The notes under the pieces were generated by a model. That model was not told the DNA's origin. It saw only the letters and a program-made list of their open reading frames with translations, and ran no database searches. A stretch of 64,000 nt of DNA from positions 4,918 through 68,917 of the forward strand of contig CAYFGK010000006.1 in NCBI GenBank assembly GCA_964342305.1. Direction: 5' to 3'. The stretch comes from an uncultured Saprospiraceae bacterium (GTDB lineage: Bacteria > Bacteroidota > Bacteroidia > Chitinophagales > Saprospiraceae). Below are positions 9,850 through 61,313 of the stretch, in pieces (positions within the stretch are counted from its first letter, which is position 1; each line of letters starts with the position of its first letter). The translations under genes were made by a program, and so were the position numbers.

Positions 9850-9998
9850 GGTGAGTAGCTGTTGGTATTTGGTATTTGGTATAGAGTATTAGGTAGTCGG
9901 ACGTGTTCAGTCCTAATACCCTCTACCTACTACTCACTACCAAGAGGTTGGGCTTTGATTATCATCCCTCTACCAATTGATTTATGTCCAACCTCGTG
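9850..9998. repeat. GGTATNN-array hairpin element, copy 1 of 3 (two-hairpin module)
   Basis: heptamer run ggtatttggtatttggtatagagtattagg pairs with cctaataccctctacc (14/16); second stem caagaggttgggc / gtccaacctcgtg; homologous to 45157-45276 and 60001-60122. Confidence 0.6.
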
Positions 9999-10009
9999 AT
10001 CGTTAAAAT

Positions 10010-10404
10010 AGCTGCGGACCGGTAAGCCGGATTCTGTCGCCGCACGTGGCGGGTCCTGTCATTTATCTGGCTCCGTCGTCACCAACGGAGTCTATCTGCC
10101 TACCCCTCCCGGCTTTCCGGAGAAAACAGCCCGAGCAAGGCCGACCGCCGAAGCGGACCGAGATATACGTGGCATTTCAACCCACAAGGTTTATCCCCAT
10201 CCCGCATTACTGCGGGACGGCGTGCGCTCTTACCGCACGTTTTCACCCTTACCCCGACGGATCGGGGCGGTATCGCTTTCTGTGACACTTTCTGTCAGTC
10301 CGTACGGACTGCCCATCCGTTAGATGGTGTGGTGCTCTACGTTGTCCGGACTTTCCTCACGTGCGGGCCGTAGCACCGCACGAGCGACAGGATGGCCCGC
10401 AGCT
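10010..10404 (-). ncRNA. rnpB: RNase P RNA, bacterial type A
   Basis: minus strand carries GAGGAAAGTCCGG (rc of 10346-10358), GGGTGAAAACGTGCGGTAAGAGCGCAC and ACAGAATCCGGCTTACC near the 3' end. Termini agctgcgggcc (5') and ggtccgcagct (3') form P1. Confidence 0.9.
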
Positions 10405-10618
10405 AATATCTTCAACACCGGAGAAGCCGGTGAGGTTCCTCGATGAGCCCTGCAAGATACAACCGGCTTCCGATCCGCACAAGCGCCAATATACCGACAA
10501 CGAAGTGGTTTTGCTCCGCAATACTTCGTGCTGGGACACCAAACCAATTCGAGTCGAGTATATACTCGCGTGAAAAGGTTTGGGCTTTGCCAAACCTTTT
10601 CGGAAGCGGTAGAAATGC

Positions 10619-13600: not shown

Positions 13601-14105
13601 GATCGATACGCTGACCCGAATTGCCAATGAGTTCTCCCGTTTCGCGAAAATGCCCAAACCCCAGAACGTCGACTTTGATCTGCAAAAGCTGTTGGAATCA
13701 GTAACGACTGTTTTTGCCGAGGAAGATGCCGGTAGGGTCCTGCTTGCCAGTGACCTCACTACGGCACCGGTTCGTGCTGATCGCGACCACCTGACCCGGG
13801 TATTGAACAACCTAATCAAGAATGGCCTGCAAGCTATTCCCGACAACCGGGAAGGGATCATTCGGGTAACCCTCACCCGACATGAACACCATTTCCTGAT
13901 CACTGTTACCGATAATGGTAATGGGATTCCCGAAGACATTCAACACAAAGTTTTTAGTCCTAACTTCACCACCAAATCGTCCGGTACCGGACTGGGACTG
14001 GCCATGTCGCGCCAGATGATCGAACAAGCGGGTGGACGAATCTATTTTGAAACGGAACCCGAGGTAGGAACTACTTTTTTTGTGGAAATACCGAGACAGG
14101 TTTGA
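10662..14105 (+). CDS. large multi-pass membrane sensor histidine kinase
   Basis: 1147 aa; many predicted TM helices in the N-terminal half, HAMP-like linker, H-box AHEIKNPLTPM, and HATPase N/G boxes (NLIKNGLQA, DNGNGIP, GTGLGL). Confidence 0.85.
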   Translation: MMRRRLIGSAILVALLTALGFVFRSSAGDQPLPCRQHLQKTFLQDQKWVQRHVSDTLLPGYFSSAKGLRYLNETQVAVETLSGLNHPRISMFLYEADSLVAWTGSGPLPPLNQVSETPGLVGNEWYARHEIDTDHFWISRINLDTSRACDLPAGTFSVKGNYYQFTFGTGTDSDKGYLSAKQSFFLFAAALIVLLSLFFGGASVLLRSGKWFTGGSFWALGLIALVISASFLFGTAPFRHWLFAPNWTGNLIGPTVIDYLWQSILLVLSMSLFRKFLQPNLRAIPNTLRAIIAIAQYIFTGGFLIIWIWVQRYLVLESDAWLQLDNVFRFDGYTIAGCLGMSLWSIAFFLASHRAAELARQVIRQTNKRILLMVVVSIGLLPLFIALDTGVPNLAFPPLLLIYLIILDLFFDRNQSDITWFIFLLITFCLFNAIILYGHSLNRDGQAMAAYAKKLSEAEDSILLQRIEEYQTATITTDQWIKKVQVDPYILRHYEIDEKTKPLFNRRDSTVSFLREQRPAGLDTYWFLGEQDTLSIYRPLRPVSFYRPYEDVLQVPQYRDLPQLNRYRYLVFRNQRVVDQQSIPNRTLLKETNRLEIGSTLQTVNWSSQAVLFRYADEGWVLLERGPGGILKPLSLCAFFFISLLLLSLVIALCNPFLRIAEGNLITLFGSTSSLRTKVQLAILGLIVTSFTAIAWMTISSFRQSTITEQETQLLKRITSIQASLSNAIDDDPTILASSQSLDSISRKMLEEYQLDINFYNRNGRRIASSSGDIPFLSNLHTLMHASAYESLRTGLEEYRIVEDQWGDISFKTVYVPLRERSRLYIGVPYYAQNREMLDDLYIFMGKLFSIYVSALLVAVAVSLFVSNQITRPLESIRTGIRNLRLGSNEPLAYQGNDEIGELVREYNDAIHKLEESTELLRKSERESAWREMAKQVAHEIKNPLTPMKLRIQHLMRAYQQDPERAAPMVKKVSNSLIEQIDTLTRIANEFSRFAKMPKPQNVDFDLQKLLESVTTVFAEEDAGRVLLASDLTTAPVRADRDHLTRVLNNLIKNGLQAIPDNREGIIRVTLTRHEHHFLITVTDNGNGIPEDIQHKVFSPNFTTKSSGTGLGLAMSRQMIEQAGGRIYFETEPEVGTTFFVEIPRQV

Positions 14106-14193
14106 GGTTTGAGGTTTGAGGTGTGAGGTGTGAGGTTACCTACAACCAAACCTCAGACCTTACCTCTAACCCCAAACCTCAAACCTCAAACCT
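14098..14193. repeat. GAGGTKT heptamer-array hairpin element
   Basis: outer 20-bp perfect stem aggtttgaggtttgaggttt (14098-14117) / aaacctcaaacctcaaacct (14174-14193); the kinase stop codon TGA (14103-14105) lies inside the left arm. Confidence 0.7.
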
Positions 14194-16417: not shown

Positions 16418-16894
16418 ATGCAAATTGCCCTCTATGTATTCATTACGATAGCCACTTTCGTTGGCATGGAGTATGTTGCCTGGGCTGCTCATAAATACCT
16501 GATGCACGGCGCCCTGTGGATCTGGCACGAAGATCACCATAACCCTGCCCATAAGGAAGGGCGTTTCTTTGAAAAGAATGATCTGTTCTTTATGGTTTTT
16601 GCTATACCCAGTGCCACCTCCTACATGGTGGGCCTATCCACGCCCGGCATGTACTGGCTTACCTTCATTGGTATCGGTATCTCCATTTACGGGTTGGTGT
16701 ACTTCCTGATCCACGATGTATACATTCACCGACGCTTCAAATGGTTCAACCAGCTCGATGGCACCTACTCTCGAGCCATCCTGCGTGCTCACGGAGCCCA
16801 CCACGCCAAAACGACTAAAGAGGATTGTGAATCCTTCGGCCTTTTGTGGGTAGACTCCAAGTTTTTCAAAAAGCGCCGTTATACCAGGTCTTAG
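16418..16894 (+). CDS. crtZ: beta-carotene hydroxylase
   Basis: 158 aa; histidine boxes HKYLMH, HEDHH, HDVYIH and HGAHH of the CrtZ / fatty-acid hydroxylase family. Confidence 0.8.
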   Translation: MQIALYVFITIATFVGMEYVAWAAHKYLMHGALWIWHEDHHNPAHKEGRFFEKNDLFFMVFAIPSATSYMVGLSTPGMYWLTFIGIGISIYGLVYFLIHDVYIHRRFKWFNQLDGTYSRAILRAHGAHHAKTTKEDCESFGLLWVDSKFFKKRRYTRS

Positions 16895-16998
16895 GTGTGA
16901 AGTGTGAGGTGTGAGATCTGAGGTGTGAGGTTTGAGGTTTGGGGTTTGAGGTTAGGTTCTAGGTAACCTCAAACCCCAAACCTCAAACCTATAACCTG
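16893..16998. repeat. GAGGTKT heptamer-array hairpin element
   Basis: perfect 27-bp stem 16928-16954 / 16964-16990 with 9-nt loop; more GTGTGAG units upstream; the crtZ stop TAG (16892-16894) abuts the first unit. Confidence 0.75.
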
Positions 16999-42029: not shown

Positions 42030-42404
42030 TTACTTCTTAGGTCGCTTCGTACCGTACTTGGAACGGCTTTGCAGGCGATCGGTAACACCGGCAGTGTCCA
42101 GTGCTCCGCGAACTACCGTGTAACGTACACCCGGTAGATCTTTTACACGACCACCTCGTACAAGTACGATGGAGTGTTCCTGCAAATTGTGACCCTCGCC
42201 CGGGATATAGGCAATAACCTCGATACCGTTCGTCAGACGTACCTTGGCAACCTTACGCAAAGCAGAGTTCGGCTTCTTGGGTGTGGTCGTATATACACGA
42301 GTGCACACACCACGACGCTGAGGAGATGACTCCAGTGCACGAGATTTGCTCTTCTGCACGATTTTCTTTCTGCCCTTGCGTACCAACTGGTTGATTGTAG
42401 GCAT
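42030..42404 (-). CDS. rpsL: 30S ribosomal protein S12
   Basis: [14 protein letters not shown]...[11 protein letters not shown]... Confidence 0.95.
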
Positions 42405-42499
42405 ATTCTAAATACTGTTTATAAAACTTAACCTTTCAGATACATTCGCTTAATAAACATCCAAGTGTCACATGGACACAGCTTGCTCAAAAGCGATTG

Positions 42500-42507
42500 C
42501 AAAGGTA
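42500..42507 (-). promoter_or_regulatory. candidate -7 promoter box (TACCTTTG) for the rpsL superoperon
   Basis: reverse complement of caaaggta fits TAnnTTTG; 95 nt upstream of the rpsL ATG. Confidence 0.3.
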
Positions 42508-42701
42508 AAGCTTTAATTCTGAAAATACAAGGTAGATCTTGAAATTGTTGGACAGCCCGCTCCCTGCGCCGGCCATATAGTACCGGGCTTCAAATGCAGG
42601 ACGTATTTCCTTCTCATAAATGAGCAAACGGCAACAGTTTGTACCGGTCTCCCCTTAATTGAAAGATTGTATTTGGTAGCGGGTATTTTGTGGTAGGAAT
42701 C

Positions 42702-43172
42702 GCCCCCTATCTCCCTTTCCCCCCTTCTCCCTTTCCCCCTCTGATTGCCGATGCCACCTTTCATGCAGGTTGGCAATTCACTTCATGGATCGCGGCAGAC
42801 GCGATAAATCGCGTCTCTACCCGGATTGGGTTTTACCGGAACGATACCGCTCCCCCTATCTCCCTTTCTCCTATTCTCCCTATCCCCCCTTCTCCCTTTC
42901 CCCCTCTGATTGCCGATGCCACCTTTCATGCAGGTTGGCAATTCACTTCATGGATCGCGGCAGACGCGATAAATCGCGTCTCTACCCGGATTGGGTTTTA
43001 CCGGAACGATACCGCTCCCCCTATCTCCTTTTCTCCCTATCTCCCAATCTCCCTTTCTCCCTATCTCCCTTTCTCCCTTTCCCCCTATCTCCCTTTCTCC
43101 CTATCTCCCTTTCTCCCTTTCCCCCTATCCCCCCTTCTCCCTATCCCCCTTTCTCCCTTTCCCCCCTTCACC
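42702..43172. repeat. 165-bp tandem repeat (two identical 111-nt cores) embedded in a CYWTCYCC octamer array
   Basis: 42741-42851 and 42906-43016 are identical; flanks and 43021-43172 are runs of ctatctcc/ctttctcc/ctttcccc/ccttctcc octamers. Confidence 0.85.
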
Positions 43173-44017
43173 CGCTCCGCTCCCGCGTACACATTACAAC
43201 GGTTATTTCTGACAAACCCGATCAGCGTCATGCCACACTCCTCCGCCAGGTCAATCGCCAGGCTGGATGGTGCACCTACCGCCGATAATACAGGGACTCC
43301 GGCCATCCAGGCTTTTTGCACCAGCTCAAAACCAATGCGGCCGCTGAGAACAATCTGTGCATTGCTCAGGGGAAGCAGGTTCTCCTCCAACGCATAACCG
43401 ATCACTTTGTCGAGAGCATTATGCCGCCCCACATCCTCAAAAGCAGCCAGTACGTTCCCATCCGGCGAGACCAGGGCAGCAGCGTGTAAGCCTCCCGTGC
43501 GGGCAAATACCGATTGACTATCGCCCAATTGCTCCGGTAACAACTGGATGTCTTCGATCCGTACCTTGGGCCACCCCGGCCGTAACAGGTACACGGATTG
43601 CTGACGTACCAGTTCCATACTGCCCTTACCACATACACCGCAACTGGAGGCAGTATAAAAATGACGCTCCTGACTCGACCAGTCCAGGTCCAAATTCTTC
43701 CGTAAGGTTATATCCAGGGTATTTTCGTGGACCATATTCCCTACCCTCCGGCGGGGCTGATCCATCCGGACTACATCCGCCCGGCAGCCAATGATGCCCT
43801 CCGTAAACAAGAACCCCAATGCCAGATGCTGATCGTCGCCGGGAGTACGCATAGTTATGGATATGGTACGGAACGGCTCCCCTCCCCCGGCTACAGACAA
43901 CCGGATCTCCAGAGGTTCCTCCACCACCACCTCGTCTTCGTCCGGTGCCCATCCCCCGTTGGTATGCCGGAAGACACGGACCGATCGTACTTGTTTTTGC
44001 GAAAGCGGGCTTTCCAT
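43085..44017 (-). CDS. fdhD: formate dehydrogenase accessory sulfurtransferase FdhD, with repeat-encoded C-terminal tail
   Basis: 310 aa; FdhD blocks FYTASSCGVCGK and GGLHAAAL; the last 27 aa (KGGKGERGIGRRGDRGKGRKGDREKGR) are read from the octamer array. Confidence 0.8.
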   Translation of the reverse strand: MESPLSQKQVRSVRVFRHTNGGWAPDEDEVVVEEPLEIRLSVAGGGEPFRTISITMRTPGDDQHLALGFLFTEGIIGCRADVVRMDQPRRRVGNMVHENTLDITLRKNLDLDWSSQERHFYTASSCGVCGKGSMELVRQQSVYLLRPGWPKVRIEDIQLLPEQLGDSQSVFARTGGLHAAALVSPDGNVLAAFEDVGRHNALDKVIGYALEENLLPLSNAQIVLSGRIGFELVQKAWMAGVPVLSAVGAPSSLAIDLAEECGMTLIGFVRNNRCNVYAGAERVKGGKGERGIGRRGDRGKGRKGDREKGR

Positions 44018-50673: not shown

Positions 50674-50734
50674 CACCCCACACCCCACACCTCACACCTC
50701 ACACCTCACACCTCAAACCTCAAACCTCAAACCT
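50674..50734. repeat. GAGGTKT heptamer array (C-rich strand on +), no inverted partner
   Basis: caccccacaccccacacctcacacctcacacctcacacctcaaacctcaaacctcaaacct; begins 14 nt after the stop of the 50748-51866 gene. Confidence 0.7.
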
Positions 50735-50747
50735 CAAACCTGTTATA

Positions 50748-60000: not shown

Positions 60001-60122
60001 GGTATAGGGTATATAGTGGCAGGGCTTACTGAAATCCATATTCCCTATACCTACTACCCTGTACCGGGAGGCTGGGACTTACCTATCTTCACTTTATCCT
60101 CTGGTCTGTGCCCAGTACTCTG
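60001..60122. repeat. GGTATNN-array hairpin element, copy 3 of 3
   Basis: ggtatagggtatat ... atattccctatacc stem, then taccgggaggctgggac...gtgcccagtactctg; aligns with the other two copies. Confidence 0.55.
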
Positions 60123-60368
60123 TAATCTAAGTTATTTGAAAATATGGGTAGGGCATTTTGGTAAAAGACAAGGTGTATATCCAAGAGTGGGGTGAAGGGG
60201 CCCTACTCTTGGATCGGAGCATCCGTACGGACGCGACCGACGAGCAACGAAGTATTTTGCCGAAAGGCACAGCCATAAGTCAAAGTTACTTAGGTTACAG
60301 AGTACTCAGCCTCACGATAAAAAAGTCGGGCAATCTTATTACTTTTCCGCCCGACCAACCCAAACGAT

Positions 60369-61313
60369 ATGTACGAGTACCGCACCGAGCCATTTGGACA
60401 ATTCGAAAAGCACGTCTTGTCCGACGACACCGGAAAACATGAAATCGCATTTGTACCCGAATACGGAGCCTGCATATTAAGCCTGCAGTTGCACGGAGTG
60501 CAGGTACTCGACGGTTATACGACGCCCATCGAACTCGACTTGAACCGATGGGGAAAAAGCGGACTGTTGTTCCCCTTTCCCAACCGCCTGGCCAATGGCC
60601 TCTACGAATGGGGCGGAATAGCTTACCGCTTTCCCATCAATGACCCCACCACGGGTACTGCCTTGCATGGTTTCGGGATGGATAAATCGTTCAAAGTGGT
60701 AACCGCCCAAACGGAAGGAGAAACTGCGCGCATTGCCTGCCGGTACGAATACGATGGAAAGTTCGACTCCTACCCCTTCCCCTTCGCCATTCAGGTTGAT
60801 TACGAATTATCAGACCGGGGTGACTTTCGCGTGAGCTACACCTGCTGGAATACCGGTGAGGCCCCGCTACCCTGGGGCTTTGGTTGGCATCCCTATTTTT
60901 GCGTAAGCGAAAAAGTGGAGGACACCCGTTTGCAAACTCCTCCACTCGACATGGTGGGGGTGGATGAACAGATGATCCCAACCGGGAAAAAATATGCCTT
61001 CACCGATTTTATCCAACCCAAACTGATTGGGGCCACTGTACTGGATAACTGCTTTGTGCCCAGTCAAAAGGACTCGGATACGCTCGAGATCCTGCTCGAA
61101 GGAGAACACGGAAAGCTGGCCTACTGGCAGGAAACCGGCGAGGCTAAGCTCAATTATACCCAGTTATTCACACCCCCCGACCGCAAGAGTATCGCCATTG
61201 AGCCCATGAGCTGTAATGTGGATGCCTTCAACAACCAGGATGGACTCATCAATCTTCAACCCGGGGAACAGGCATCCGGAAGCTTCGGAGTACGGTTCCA
61301 GGCCAGGGATTAG
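60369..61313 (+). CDS. aldose 1-epimerase family protein
   Basis: 314 aa; LFPFPNRL..G.Y....Y.FPIN.....ALHGF and IEPMSC blocks of the galactose-mutarotase-like fold. Confidence 0.8.
   Translation: MYEYRTEPFGQFEKHVLSDDTGKHEIAFVPEYGACILSLQLHGVQVLDGYTTPIELDLNRWGKSGLLFPFPNRLANGLYEWGGIAYRFPINDPTTGTALHGFGMDKSFKVVTAQTEGETARIACRYEYDGKFDSYPFPFAIQVDYELSDRGDFRVSYTCWNTGEAPLPWGFGWHPYFCVSEKVEDTRLQTPPLDMVGVDEQMIPTGKKYAFTDFIQPKLIGATVLDNCFVPSQKDSDTLEILLEGEHGKLAYWQETGEAKLNYTQLFTPPDRKSIAIEPMSCNVDAFNNQDGLINLQPGEQASGSFGVRFQARD

Follow-up and report, generated by a model that had tools for sequence, protein, structure and literature searches.

A GTAG-tagged REP cluster nested in an octamer microsatellite between fdhD and rpsL of an uncultured marine Saprospiraceae bacterium

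Between the genes fdhD and rpsL of an uncultured marine Saprospiraceae bacterium lies a block of tandem repeats, in which two identical structured cores are enclosed by arrays of pyrimidine octamers. A preliminary description, made from the sequence, regarded this block as the best local candidate for an undescribed system, which raises the question of what kind of DNA it is, how its two cores arose and whether it could serve a function for the host. The window, i.e. the whole 64-kb stretch of DNA that was analysed, is part of a 102-kb TARA Oceans metagenome scaffold, and the proteins that cluster with its S12 at 90% identity are assigned to Saprospiraceae by their sources. Here, the architecture of the block, the occurrence of its parts in other genomes and the state of the same site in related Saprospiraceae are considered in turn.

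Architecture of the repeat block

The neighbours of the repeat were identified with Pfam as FdhD-NarQ and ribosomal protein S12. Both are encoded on the minus strand, so that the array is purine-rich in gene orientation, with the fdhD-side array reading GGGAGAWA on the gene strand and being rich in G runs. In this orientation the order is fdhD, ~19 octamers, core, ~7 octamers, core, ~5 octamers, ~300 nt and rpsL (Table 1), and the octamers at the locus number ~31 in all. A TTG-N20-TACCTTTG sequence at ~42500-42530, upstream of rpsL, matches the Bacteroidota promoter consensus and is a putative promoter.

The identity of 42741-42851 with 42906-43016 over 111 nt, which had been noticed before, was confirmed and is longer than described, as the identical blocks comprise 146 nt (42718-42863 and 42883-43028) and reach beyond the 111-nt cores by 23 nt on the left and 12 nt on the right. 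Tandem Repeats Finder (TRF) reported a 165-nt period in 2.2 copies (42705-43070, score 667) and octamer-based arrays at 42703-42739, 42851-42905 and 43019-43173. The last of these has a 16-nt period in 9.7 copies (~19 octamers) and a higher-order period of 40 nt in 3.7 copies with 93% matches; a separate repeat search agreed on the array structure. The octamer flanks, the run of ~19 uninterrupted units and the 40-nt period of the preliminary description are thus borne out. Both ends of the octamer spacer between the cores match exactly the array ends beside the opposite core copy.

Each core contains both of the pairings that had been proposed for it, the hairpin AGACGCGA-TAAA-TCGCGTCT and the pairing of ATTGCC with GGCAAT. 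The hairpin 20-mer occurs at two sites only in the 64-kb window, where none would be expected by chance, and the second hairpin is without a match elsewhere in the fetched loci and in JGI metagenomes. With two copies and a spacer composed of octamers, the locus lacks the three or more regular repeats and unique spacers of a CRISPR array. Without its loop, the stem GCGA-TTTA-TCGC of the minus strand (42800-42813 and 42965-42978) would read as GCGATCGC, the cyanobacterial HIP1 octamer, which may be a coincidence or a hint at a cyanobacterial origin.

Table 1. Coordinates of features at the fdhD-rpsL locus (positions in the 64-kb window)
Feature	Position	Strand	Basis or remark
rpsL (ribosomal protein S12)	42030..42404	-	ORF list and Pfam
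rpsL upstream region	42405..42552	-	conserved in 9/9 sister loci, 92-95% identity
Spacer common only to window and sister locus L155	42553..42702	-	alignment
rpsL-side octamer array, ~4.7 units	42703..42740	-	TRF 42703-42739
Span of both 146-nt identical blocks	42718..43028		pairwise identity
Core copy A, rpsL-side, 111 nt	42741..42851	-	identical to copy B
Second hairpin of core, ATTGCC ... GGCAAT	42744..42777; copy B 42909-42942		lineage-specific
REP unit A: GTAG + hairpin	42797..42820	-	sequence match
Octamer spacer between cores, 54 nt, 6.75 units	42852..42905	-	TRF and sequence
Core copy B, fdhD-side, 111 nt	42906..43016	-	identical to 42741-42851
REP unit B: GTAG + AGACGCGA-TTTA-TCGCGTCT	42962..42985	-	sequence match
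fdhD-side octamer array, ~19.5 units	43017..43173	-	TRF and repeat search
fdhD ORF, 310 aa	43085..44017	-	last ~27 codons array-encoded; Pfam FdhD-NarQ

That a single core was falsely doubled by the assembler is extremely improbable, even though the contigs of two other assemblies end in the repeat and the 146-nt identity exceeds the k-mer of 127. In a separate assembly, made with another assembler (megahit), a contig (L002) runs through core 1 and the distinct 54-nt spacer and stops after 83 nt of core 2. The duplication is therefore not the artefact of one assembler, and the three octamer stretches differ from each other, unlike those of a simple loop artefact. We conclude that the duplication of the core is real; as the data are short reads, its copy number can be stated only as at least two. 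A further contig (ERZ17175005 NODE_129699, L159) is expected from its coordinates to end in or near the repeat block. Searches for additional strains of the species yielded only this scaffold again or contigs that break off in the repeat. At the end of L002, a single base deviates from the window sequence (CGCGATCTATG in L002, CGCGATCCATG in the window).

On the minus strand, the fdhD ORF runs ~27 codons into the array, a feature which the preliminary description had missed. The Pfam FdhD domain reaches to residue 283 of the 310-residue protein, and the remaining ~27 codons are octamer array (43085-43168), encoding a G/K/R/E-rich tail beyond the domain. The plus-strand ORFs called across the block had been dismissed as genes, and rightly so: they are without a Pfam family and lie antisense to fdhD and the array, and a protein search with the DAINRVST frame found no homologue. 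The repeat block thus accounts both for the assembly breaks and for the spurious low-complexity ORF calls at this site.

The block had also been grouped with repeats elsewhere in the window into eight elements of a single system. This grouping is not tenable, as the heptamer arrays elsewhere in the window lack the GTAG hairpin described below and are therefore a different element from the fdhD-rpsL repeat. These arrays, (AGGTKTG)n / (CAMACCT)n, are located at 14098-14193, 16886-16997 and 50674-50741 and belong to one heptamer family; the first two are inverted, with long hairpins being possible, and the third is a single arm. Three further repeats were observed in the window. A (TTGGTAT)3 repeat with an imperfect inverted partner (9862-9941) lies ~65 nt past the 3' end of the RNase P RNA gene (10007-10403, minus strand) and may be the terminator hairpin of that gene. 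A 30-nt inverted repeat with 97% complementarity (1528-1557 / 10489-10518), the arms of which are 8.9 kb apart, brackets the RNase P RNA region, and a 34-nt inverted repeat with 79% complementarity and arms 125 nt apart (60114-60147 / 60273-60306) is located just upstream of an ORF at 60369-61313.

Distribution and anatomy of the hairpin unit

The exact hairpin 20-mer was found in more than 119 genome stretches of at least 11 phyla in a collection holding one genome per species, the phyla being assigned from record titles, and in 25 IMG/VR viral (phage) contigs. By our own calculation (2 x 596 Gb / 4^20), ~1 match would be expected by chance. Among the matches listed, the hosts are mostly Nostocales, Oscillatoriales and Bacteroidota, with ~60 stretches from Cyanobacteriota (Nostoc, Calothrix, Fischerella, Oscillatoria and others) and ~22 from Bacteroidota (Cytophagales, Flavobacteriales, Bacteroidales and one Saprospiraceae MAG). 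Patescibacteria, Omnitrophota, Gammaproteobacteria (Methylococcaceae), Planctomycetota, Chlorobiota, Abditibacteriota, Spirochaetota, Acidobacteriota and Cloacimonadota are also represented among the matches listed. The hairpin is present on plasmids of Nostoc PCC 7120, N. punctiforme and A. variabilis, and on the Nostoc PCC 7120 plasmid it lies between convergent genes. At least 3-7 separate loci per genome were found, among the matches listed, in several genomes, e.g. those of an Oscillatoria MAG, of Fischerella PCC 9431 and of an Omnitrophota MAG, and ~73 kb of the source genome contains one REP locus only. The recurrence of the hairpin in Cyanobacteria and Bacteroidota, which had been proposed in the form of peptide strings, therefore holds at the level of DNA (more than 119 stretches against ~1 by chance), whereas the peptide strings were not confirmed as protein; neither these strings nor the 20-mer appear in any paper of the literature collection searched.

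The part that is common to other DNA is very short. When the flanks of all copies are lined up, conservation ends at GTAG-[hairpin], and when the 146-nt block was compared with 1.15 Mb of fetched loci by a sensitive blastn-short search, only its positions 44-67, i.e. GTAG and the hairpin, matched, with nothing above chance 12-17-mers for the rest of the core. Two 23-24-mers of the core outside the hairpin were not matched exactly by any sequence in the JGI metagenomes, although sister genomes are represented there. The earlier inference that the entire 111-nt core belongs to a widespread element thus fails, as 24 nt are common to other DNA and ~87 nt were unmatched in these searches. Across those 24 nt, REP unit B is identical (24/24) to the commonest form in other genomes.

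The stem, AGACGCGA(T)-TT(TA)-(A)TCGCGTCT, has 8-9 perfect pairs and forms a short palindromic unit. In both window copies the minus strand carries GTAG and the hairpin followed by GCCG instead of CTAC, leaving GTAG unpaired. Of the 168 exact copies, 125 have GTAG at the 5' side of the TTTA-loop strand, and only 24 have CTAC on the opposite side. Pairing and genomic context were assessed with the 234 copies at up to 4 mismatches in the fetched loci (0 in shuffled sequence). Among these, 33 pairs are inverted with GTAG outside, 8 are inverted with GTAG inside and 13 are tandem. Long ORFs contain 24 of the 234 copies, compared with 156 for random positions, and the flanking genes are co-directional in 102 cases, convergent in 30 and divergent in 9. 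The REP site of the window is likewise extragenic, between the co-directional fdhD and rpsL, and its two copies are arranged head to tail at a distance of 165 nt, which is distinct from the inverted REP doublet of a REPIN.

Repetitive extragenic palindromes (REPs) form families that tend to be lineage-specific. The REP/RAYT system consists of a Y1/HUH gene flanked by its own REP, and RAYTs are usually single-copy. In the survey by Di Nocera et al. (2013), GTAG REPs are defined by the features listed above (PMC3733652), and the E. coli TnpA-REP/RAYT binds GTAG base-specifically and requires it for cleavage (PMC3479197). By its anatomy, the 24-nt unit is assigned to the GTAG-tagged REPs. Earlier thought to be uncharacterised, the shared unit has the defining anatomy of this class (PMC3733652, PMC3479197). 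The 2013 survey lists for Bacteroidetes only CGTC-type repeats and not GTAG (PMC3733652).

Further features support this likeness. The 24-nt length, the unpaired 5' GTAG, the GC-rich stem of 8-9 bp and the short loop agree with GTAG REPs, REPINs and BIMEs as described in PMC3733652, PMC3116915 and PMC3479197, and so do the extragenic position between co-directional or convergent genes and the mostly GTAG-outside inverted dimers of the family. Clusters of GTAG REPs arise by tandem reiteration along with flanking DNA, which fits the 165-nt unit. On the other hand, the window contains only two copies at one locus, which are head to tail (rare for REPs), lack an inverted partner and are embedded in an octamer microsatellite; no RAYT gene was seen in the window or in ~4 kb around ~150 sites, and a unit with 24/24 identity in at least 11 phyla and in phage contigs is unlike most REP families, which are lineage-specific. 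The locus is a GTAG REP cluster nested in a microsatellite, and hence a known kind of DNA and not a new RNA gene or system.

The fdhD-rpsL site in sister Saprospiraceae

Nine further contigs encode an identical S12 and share the fdhD-rpsL synteny. Their nucleotide identity to the window is 90-93% in fusA and 75-78% in fdhD, and the ~150 nt directly upstream of rpsL are common to all nine. The fdhD 3' end, in contrast to these shared regions, carries a variable short-repeat array that is different in every lineage. The closest locus (L155) has six G-rich octamers without the core, although the 297 nt between its array and rpsL agree with the window to 90%. Four loci (L149, L150, L152 and L154) have ~nine octamers and, behind them, a tandem pair of decayed hairpin copies, L151 has one decayed copy, the copies of L153 and L156 are decayed further, and L148 contains GTGGATAA octamers without a hairpin. 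The hairpin copies of the sister sites carry 2 to ~6 changes, compared with the perfect copies of the window, and alignment of their flanks with the window core shows nothing convincing outside the hairpin. As fdhD 3' ends vary between lineages (0 to ~31 octamers between sister species) and the hairpin flanks of the sister loci do not align with the window core, the site is a hot spot of long standing, where both short tandem repeats and REP copies have come to lie. With its ~31 octamers and two perfect cores, the window represents an expansion specific to its lineage. In L149 (3520-3850), as well as in L150-L154 and L156, the decayed hairpin is separated from the rpsL promoter region by a conserved block of ~330 nt that contains TCGTCTTTTTTTGGCGAAAGCC. 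This block, possibly a terminator or small RNA of the sister lineages, is missing from the window, L155 and L148.

FdhD of the sister species stops at varying points (284-308 aa), which indicates that the microsatellite alters the C-terminus of the protein. An 8-nt unit in 0 to ~31 copies that overlaps the end of a coding sequence is reminiscent of contingency-type microsatellites and of polypurine, G4-prone arrays. Unlike in contingency microsatellites, the affected tail lies beyond the FdhD domain, and phase-variable expression is not evidenced.

We consider it unlikely that the block is a selected structural or insulator element, in which the polypurine G-run array would act as G-quadruplex (G4) or triplex DNA or RNA together with the hairpins, halting read-through from fdhD or binding a protein. 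Such a role would be in keeping with the lack of an intrinsic terminator between fdhD and rpsL (0 terminator-like sites were found in 42350-43250, and the hairpin is followed by GCCGCG), with the array holding 29 of the 34 minus-strand G4-motif starts of the 64-kb window and with the presence of G-run octamers at the same site in 3 of 5 sister lineages. A weak bias of the GTAG strand to the sense strand of co-directional neighbours (54 vs 35) points in the same direction. However, the array is absent or G-run-poor in L148, L151, L153 and L156 and its length ranges from 0 to ~31 units, and is therefore not conserved as a function would require. Furthermore, G4 motifs near hairpins are barely enriched across the family (9/234 vs 4 expected), and a link to G-quadruplexes as a general property of the hairpin was rejected.

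Tandem small-RNA genes or cis-regulatory RNAs, with each 111-nt core as a structured transcript, had been among the first candidates for the locus and appear very unlikely. The two hairpins per core and the minus-strand fold (-37.6 kcal/mol, z = -2.26 vs shuffles) would suit this reading, whereas the plus-strand fold reaches a z of only -1.25 and the locus has no Rfam match on either strand, even at E = 10 and none at gathering score; in the whole window at gathering score, Rfam identified only RNase P RNA, elsewhere in the window. As the core is absent from 9 of 9 sister loci, neither conservation nor covariation backs an RNA structure. In addition, no promoter or terminator pattern was found inside the repeat by a scan for the sigma-70 type, a class that does not include Bacteroidota promoters, and the piece that is conserved is a DNA-level REP found in either orientation beside unrelated genes.

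A MITE-like non-autonomous transposon of 111-165 nt, which inserted into the array and was then duplicated, is a very improbable alternative. Like MITEs, the core is small, non-coding and intergenic, and its presence differs between close relatives, as it is missing from the otherwise 90%-identical intergenic region of L155. Unlike in MITEs, its hairpins are all internal, terminal inverted repeats are lacking, and neither a recognisable target-site duplication nor dispersed full-length copies were found: there is no further copy in the window or in 1.15 Mb of related and unrelated loci, and the absence of its two 23-24-mers from the JGI metagenomes extends to the sister genomes these include.

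Short tandem arrays, duplication and mobilisation

A hairpin is found within 30 nt of a 5-12-nt tandem array in 11 cases, compared with 3.5 at random positions, and within 100 nt in 22 compared with 6.9. As hairpins and arrays are both intergenic, this ~3-fold excess of adjacency is confounded and was not counted, and a specific link between hairpin and short tandem repeats was set aside. The hairpin adjoins heptamer arrays in Scytonematopsis and Oscillatoria loci (L009, L051, L055 and L084). Tandem arrays derived from the 3' arm of the hairpin or located directly beside hairpin copies were observed in L012, L021, L062, L071 and L114, including half-REP tandem arrays in L071, L012 and L114; in L071 (~2070-2250, a Flavobacteriales MAG) the array is built from the hairpin 3' half, GCGATTTATCGCGTCT, and a 10-nt spacer. 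An IMG/VR contig (L142:860-1881) contains a 448-nt tandem unit with three hairpins per unit.

For Cyanobacteria, Elhai et al. (2008) reportedly described eight consensus sequences of small dispersed repeats (SDR) of 21-27 nt, which are near-identical modules inside 7-8-nt tandem arrays (STRR), and are said to have proposed that SDRs settle in short tandem arrays or seed them. The window 24-mer, which is likewise very short, near-identical and located within 7-8-nt tandem repeats, can be likened to these modules by description, with the difference that its host is a Saprospiraceae bacterium. This cyanobacterial SDR and STRR heptamer work is cited in PMC4390886 and PMC3116915.

Taken together, the locus is probably a hypervariable intergenic repeat nest, in which a REP-bearing segment lies in a slippage-prone microsatellite and was duplicated via the octamers, with mobilisation of the REP by a RAYT transposase inferred by analogy. 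As read from the aligned sequences, a G-rich octamer microsatellite at the fdhD 3' end of this group of Saprospiraceae differs in length and sequence between species, presumably through replication slippage. In the window lineage, this array encloses a segment of ~111 nt, of which a single GTAG-tagged REP of 24 nt is the sole recognisable component. Together with some of the array, this segment was recently duplicated head to tail, most likely by unequal recombination or slipped-strand mispairing between the flanking octamers, which explains why perfectly identical cores stand beside drifting octamers. The very recent date that had been suggested for the duplication agrees with the 146 identical nt next to such octamers. 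Beyond the core, this identity extends into the array by 12-14 nt on one side and by 23 nt on the other, and the 54-nt spacer resembles the rpsL-side array at its start and the fdhD-side array at its end. Owing to a few extra differences in the middle of the spacer, the fit to unequal crossing-over or slipped mispairing is good and not exact.

The hairpin is a member of a REP family that is spread over many phyla. By analogy with characterised GTAG REPs, it would be bound and cut as single-stranded DNA by a REP-associated tyrosine transposase (RAYT/TnpA-REP; HUH/Y1). Screens for HUH...Y motifs detected no Y1/RAYT gene within ~4 kb of ~150 sampled hairpin sites or in the window. Among the 25 commonest families listed by a Pfam scan of 148 ORFs adjoining hairpins no transposase was found, a listing that a single Y1 match could escape, and all-against-all clustering of 2,236 ORFs around hairpins yielded only generic families, e.g. 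ABC-F ATPases and sensor kinases. As RAYTs are normally single-copy, their absence near the sampled sites is expected and says little. RAYT group 4, or TnpA-REP subclass 2.4, is frequent in Cyanobacteria and Bacteroidetes, with scattered occurrences in many phyla (PMC6006769; PMC5581495), and this host range mirrors that of the hairpin and offers a lead to the enzyme. For the host, any effect of the repeat would probably be a by-product: the fdhD transcript may gain a structured 3' end, or read-through into the ribosomal operon may be hindered.

Several observations weigh against the repeat nest with octamer-mediated duplication. The spacer corresponds only roughly to a chimera of both arrays, the head-to-tail arrangement is rare and the 24/24 identity across phyla unusual for REPs, and dispersal in the source genome amounts to one REP locus in ~73 kb. 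In addition, perfect copies in the window, as opposed to decayed copies with unrelated flanks in the sister loci, are not explained by pure neutral decay of one old insertion. These perfect copies, together with the half-REP arrays and the 165-nt tandem unit, would also fit a reading that we regard as unlikely, in which the 24-nt GTAG hairpin is an active horizontal micro-element of Cyanobacteria, Bacteroidota, candidate-phyla bacteria and phages that settles preferentially in short tandem arrays or seeds them. All three features could result from one HUH-driven nick-and-slip mechanism, or alternatively from unrelated slippage events.

Its identification as a REP removes the repeat between fdhD and rpsL from the candidates for undescribed systems. 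The occurrence of one exact GTAG-REP in at least 11 phyla and in phage contigs bears on the strict vertical inheritance of REP/RAYT systems. Finally, the co-occurrence of a REP with a 7-8-nt microsatellite in Saprospiraceae, as in Nostocales, hints at a common mechanism of local amplification.
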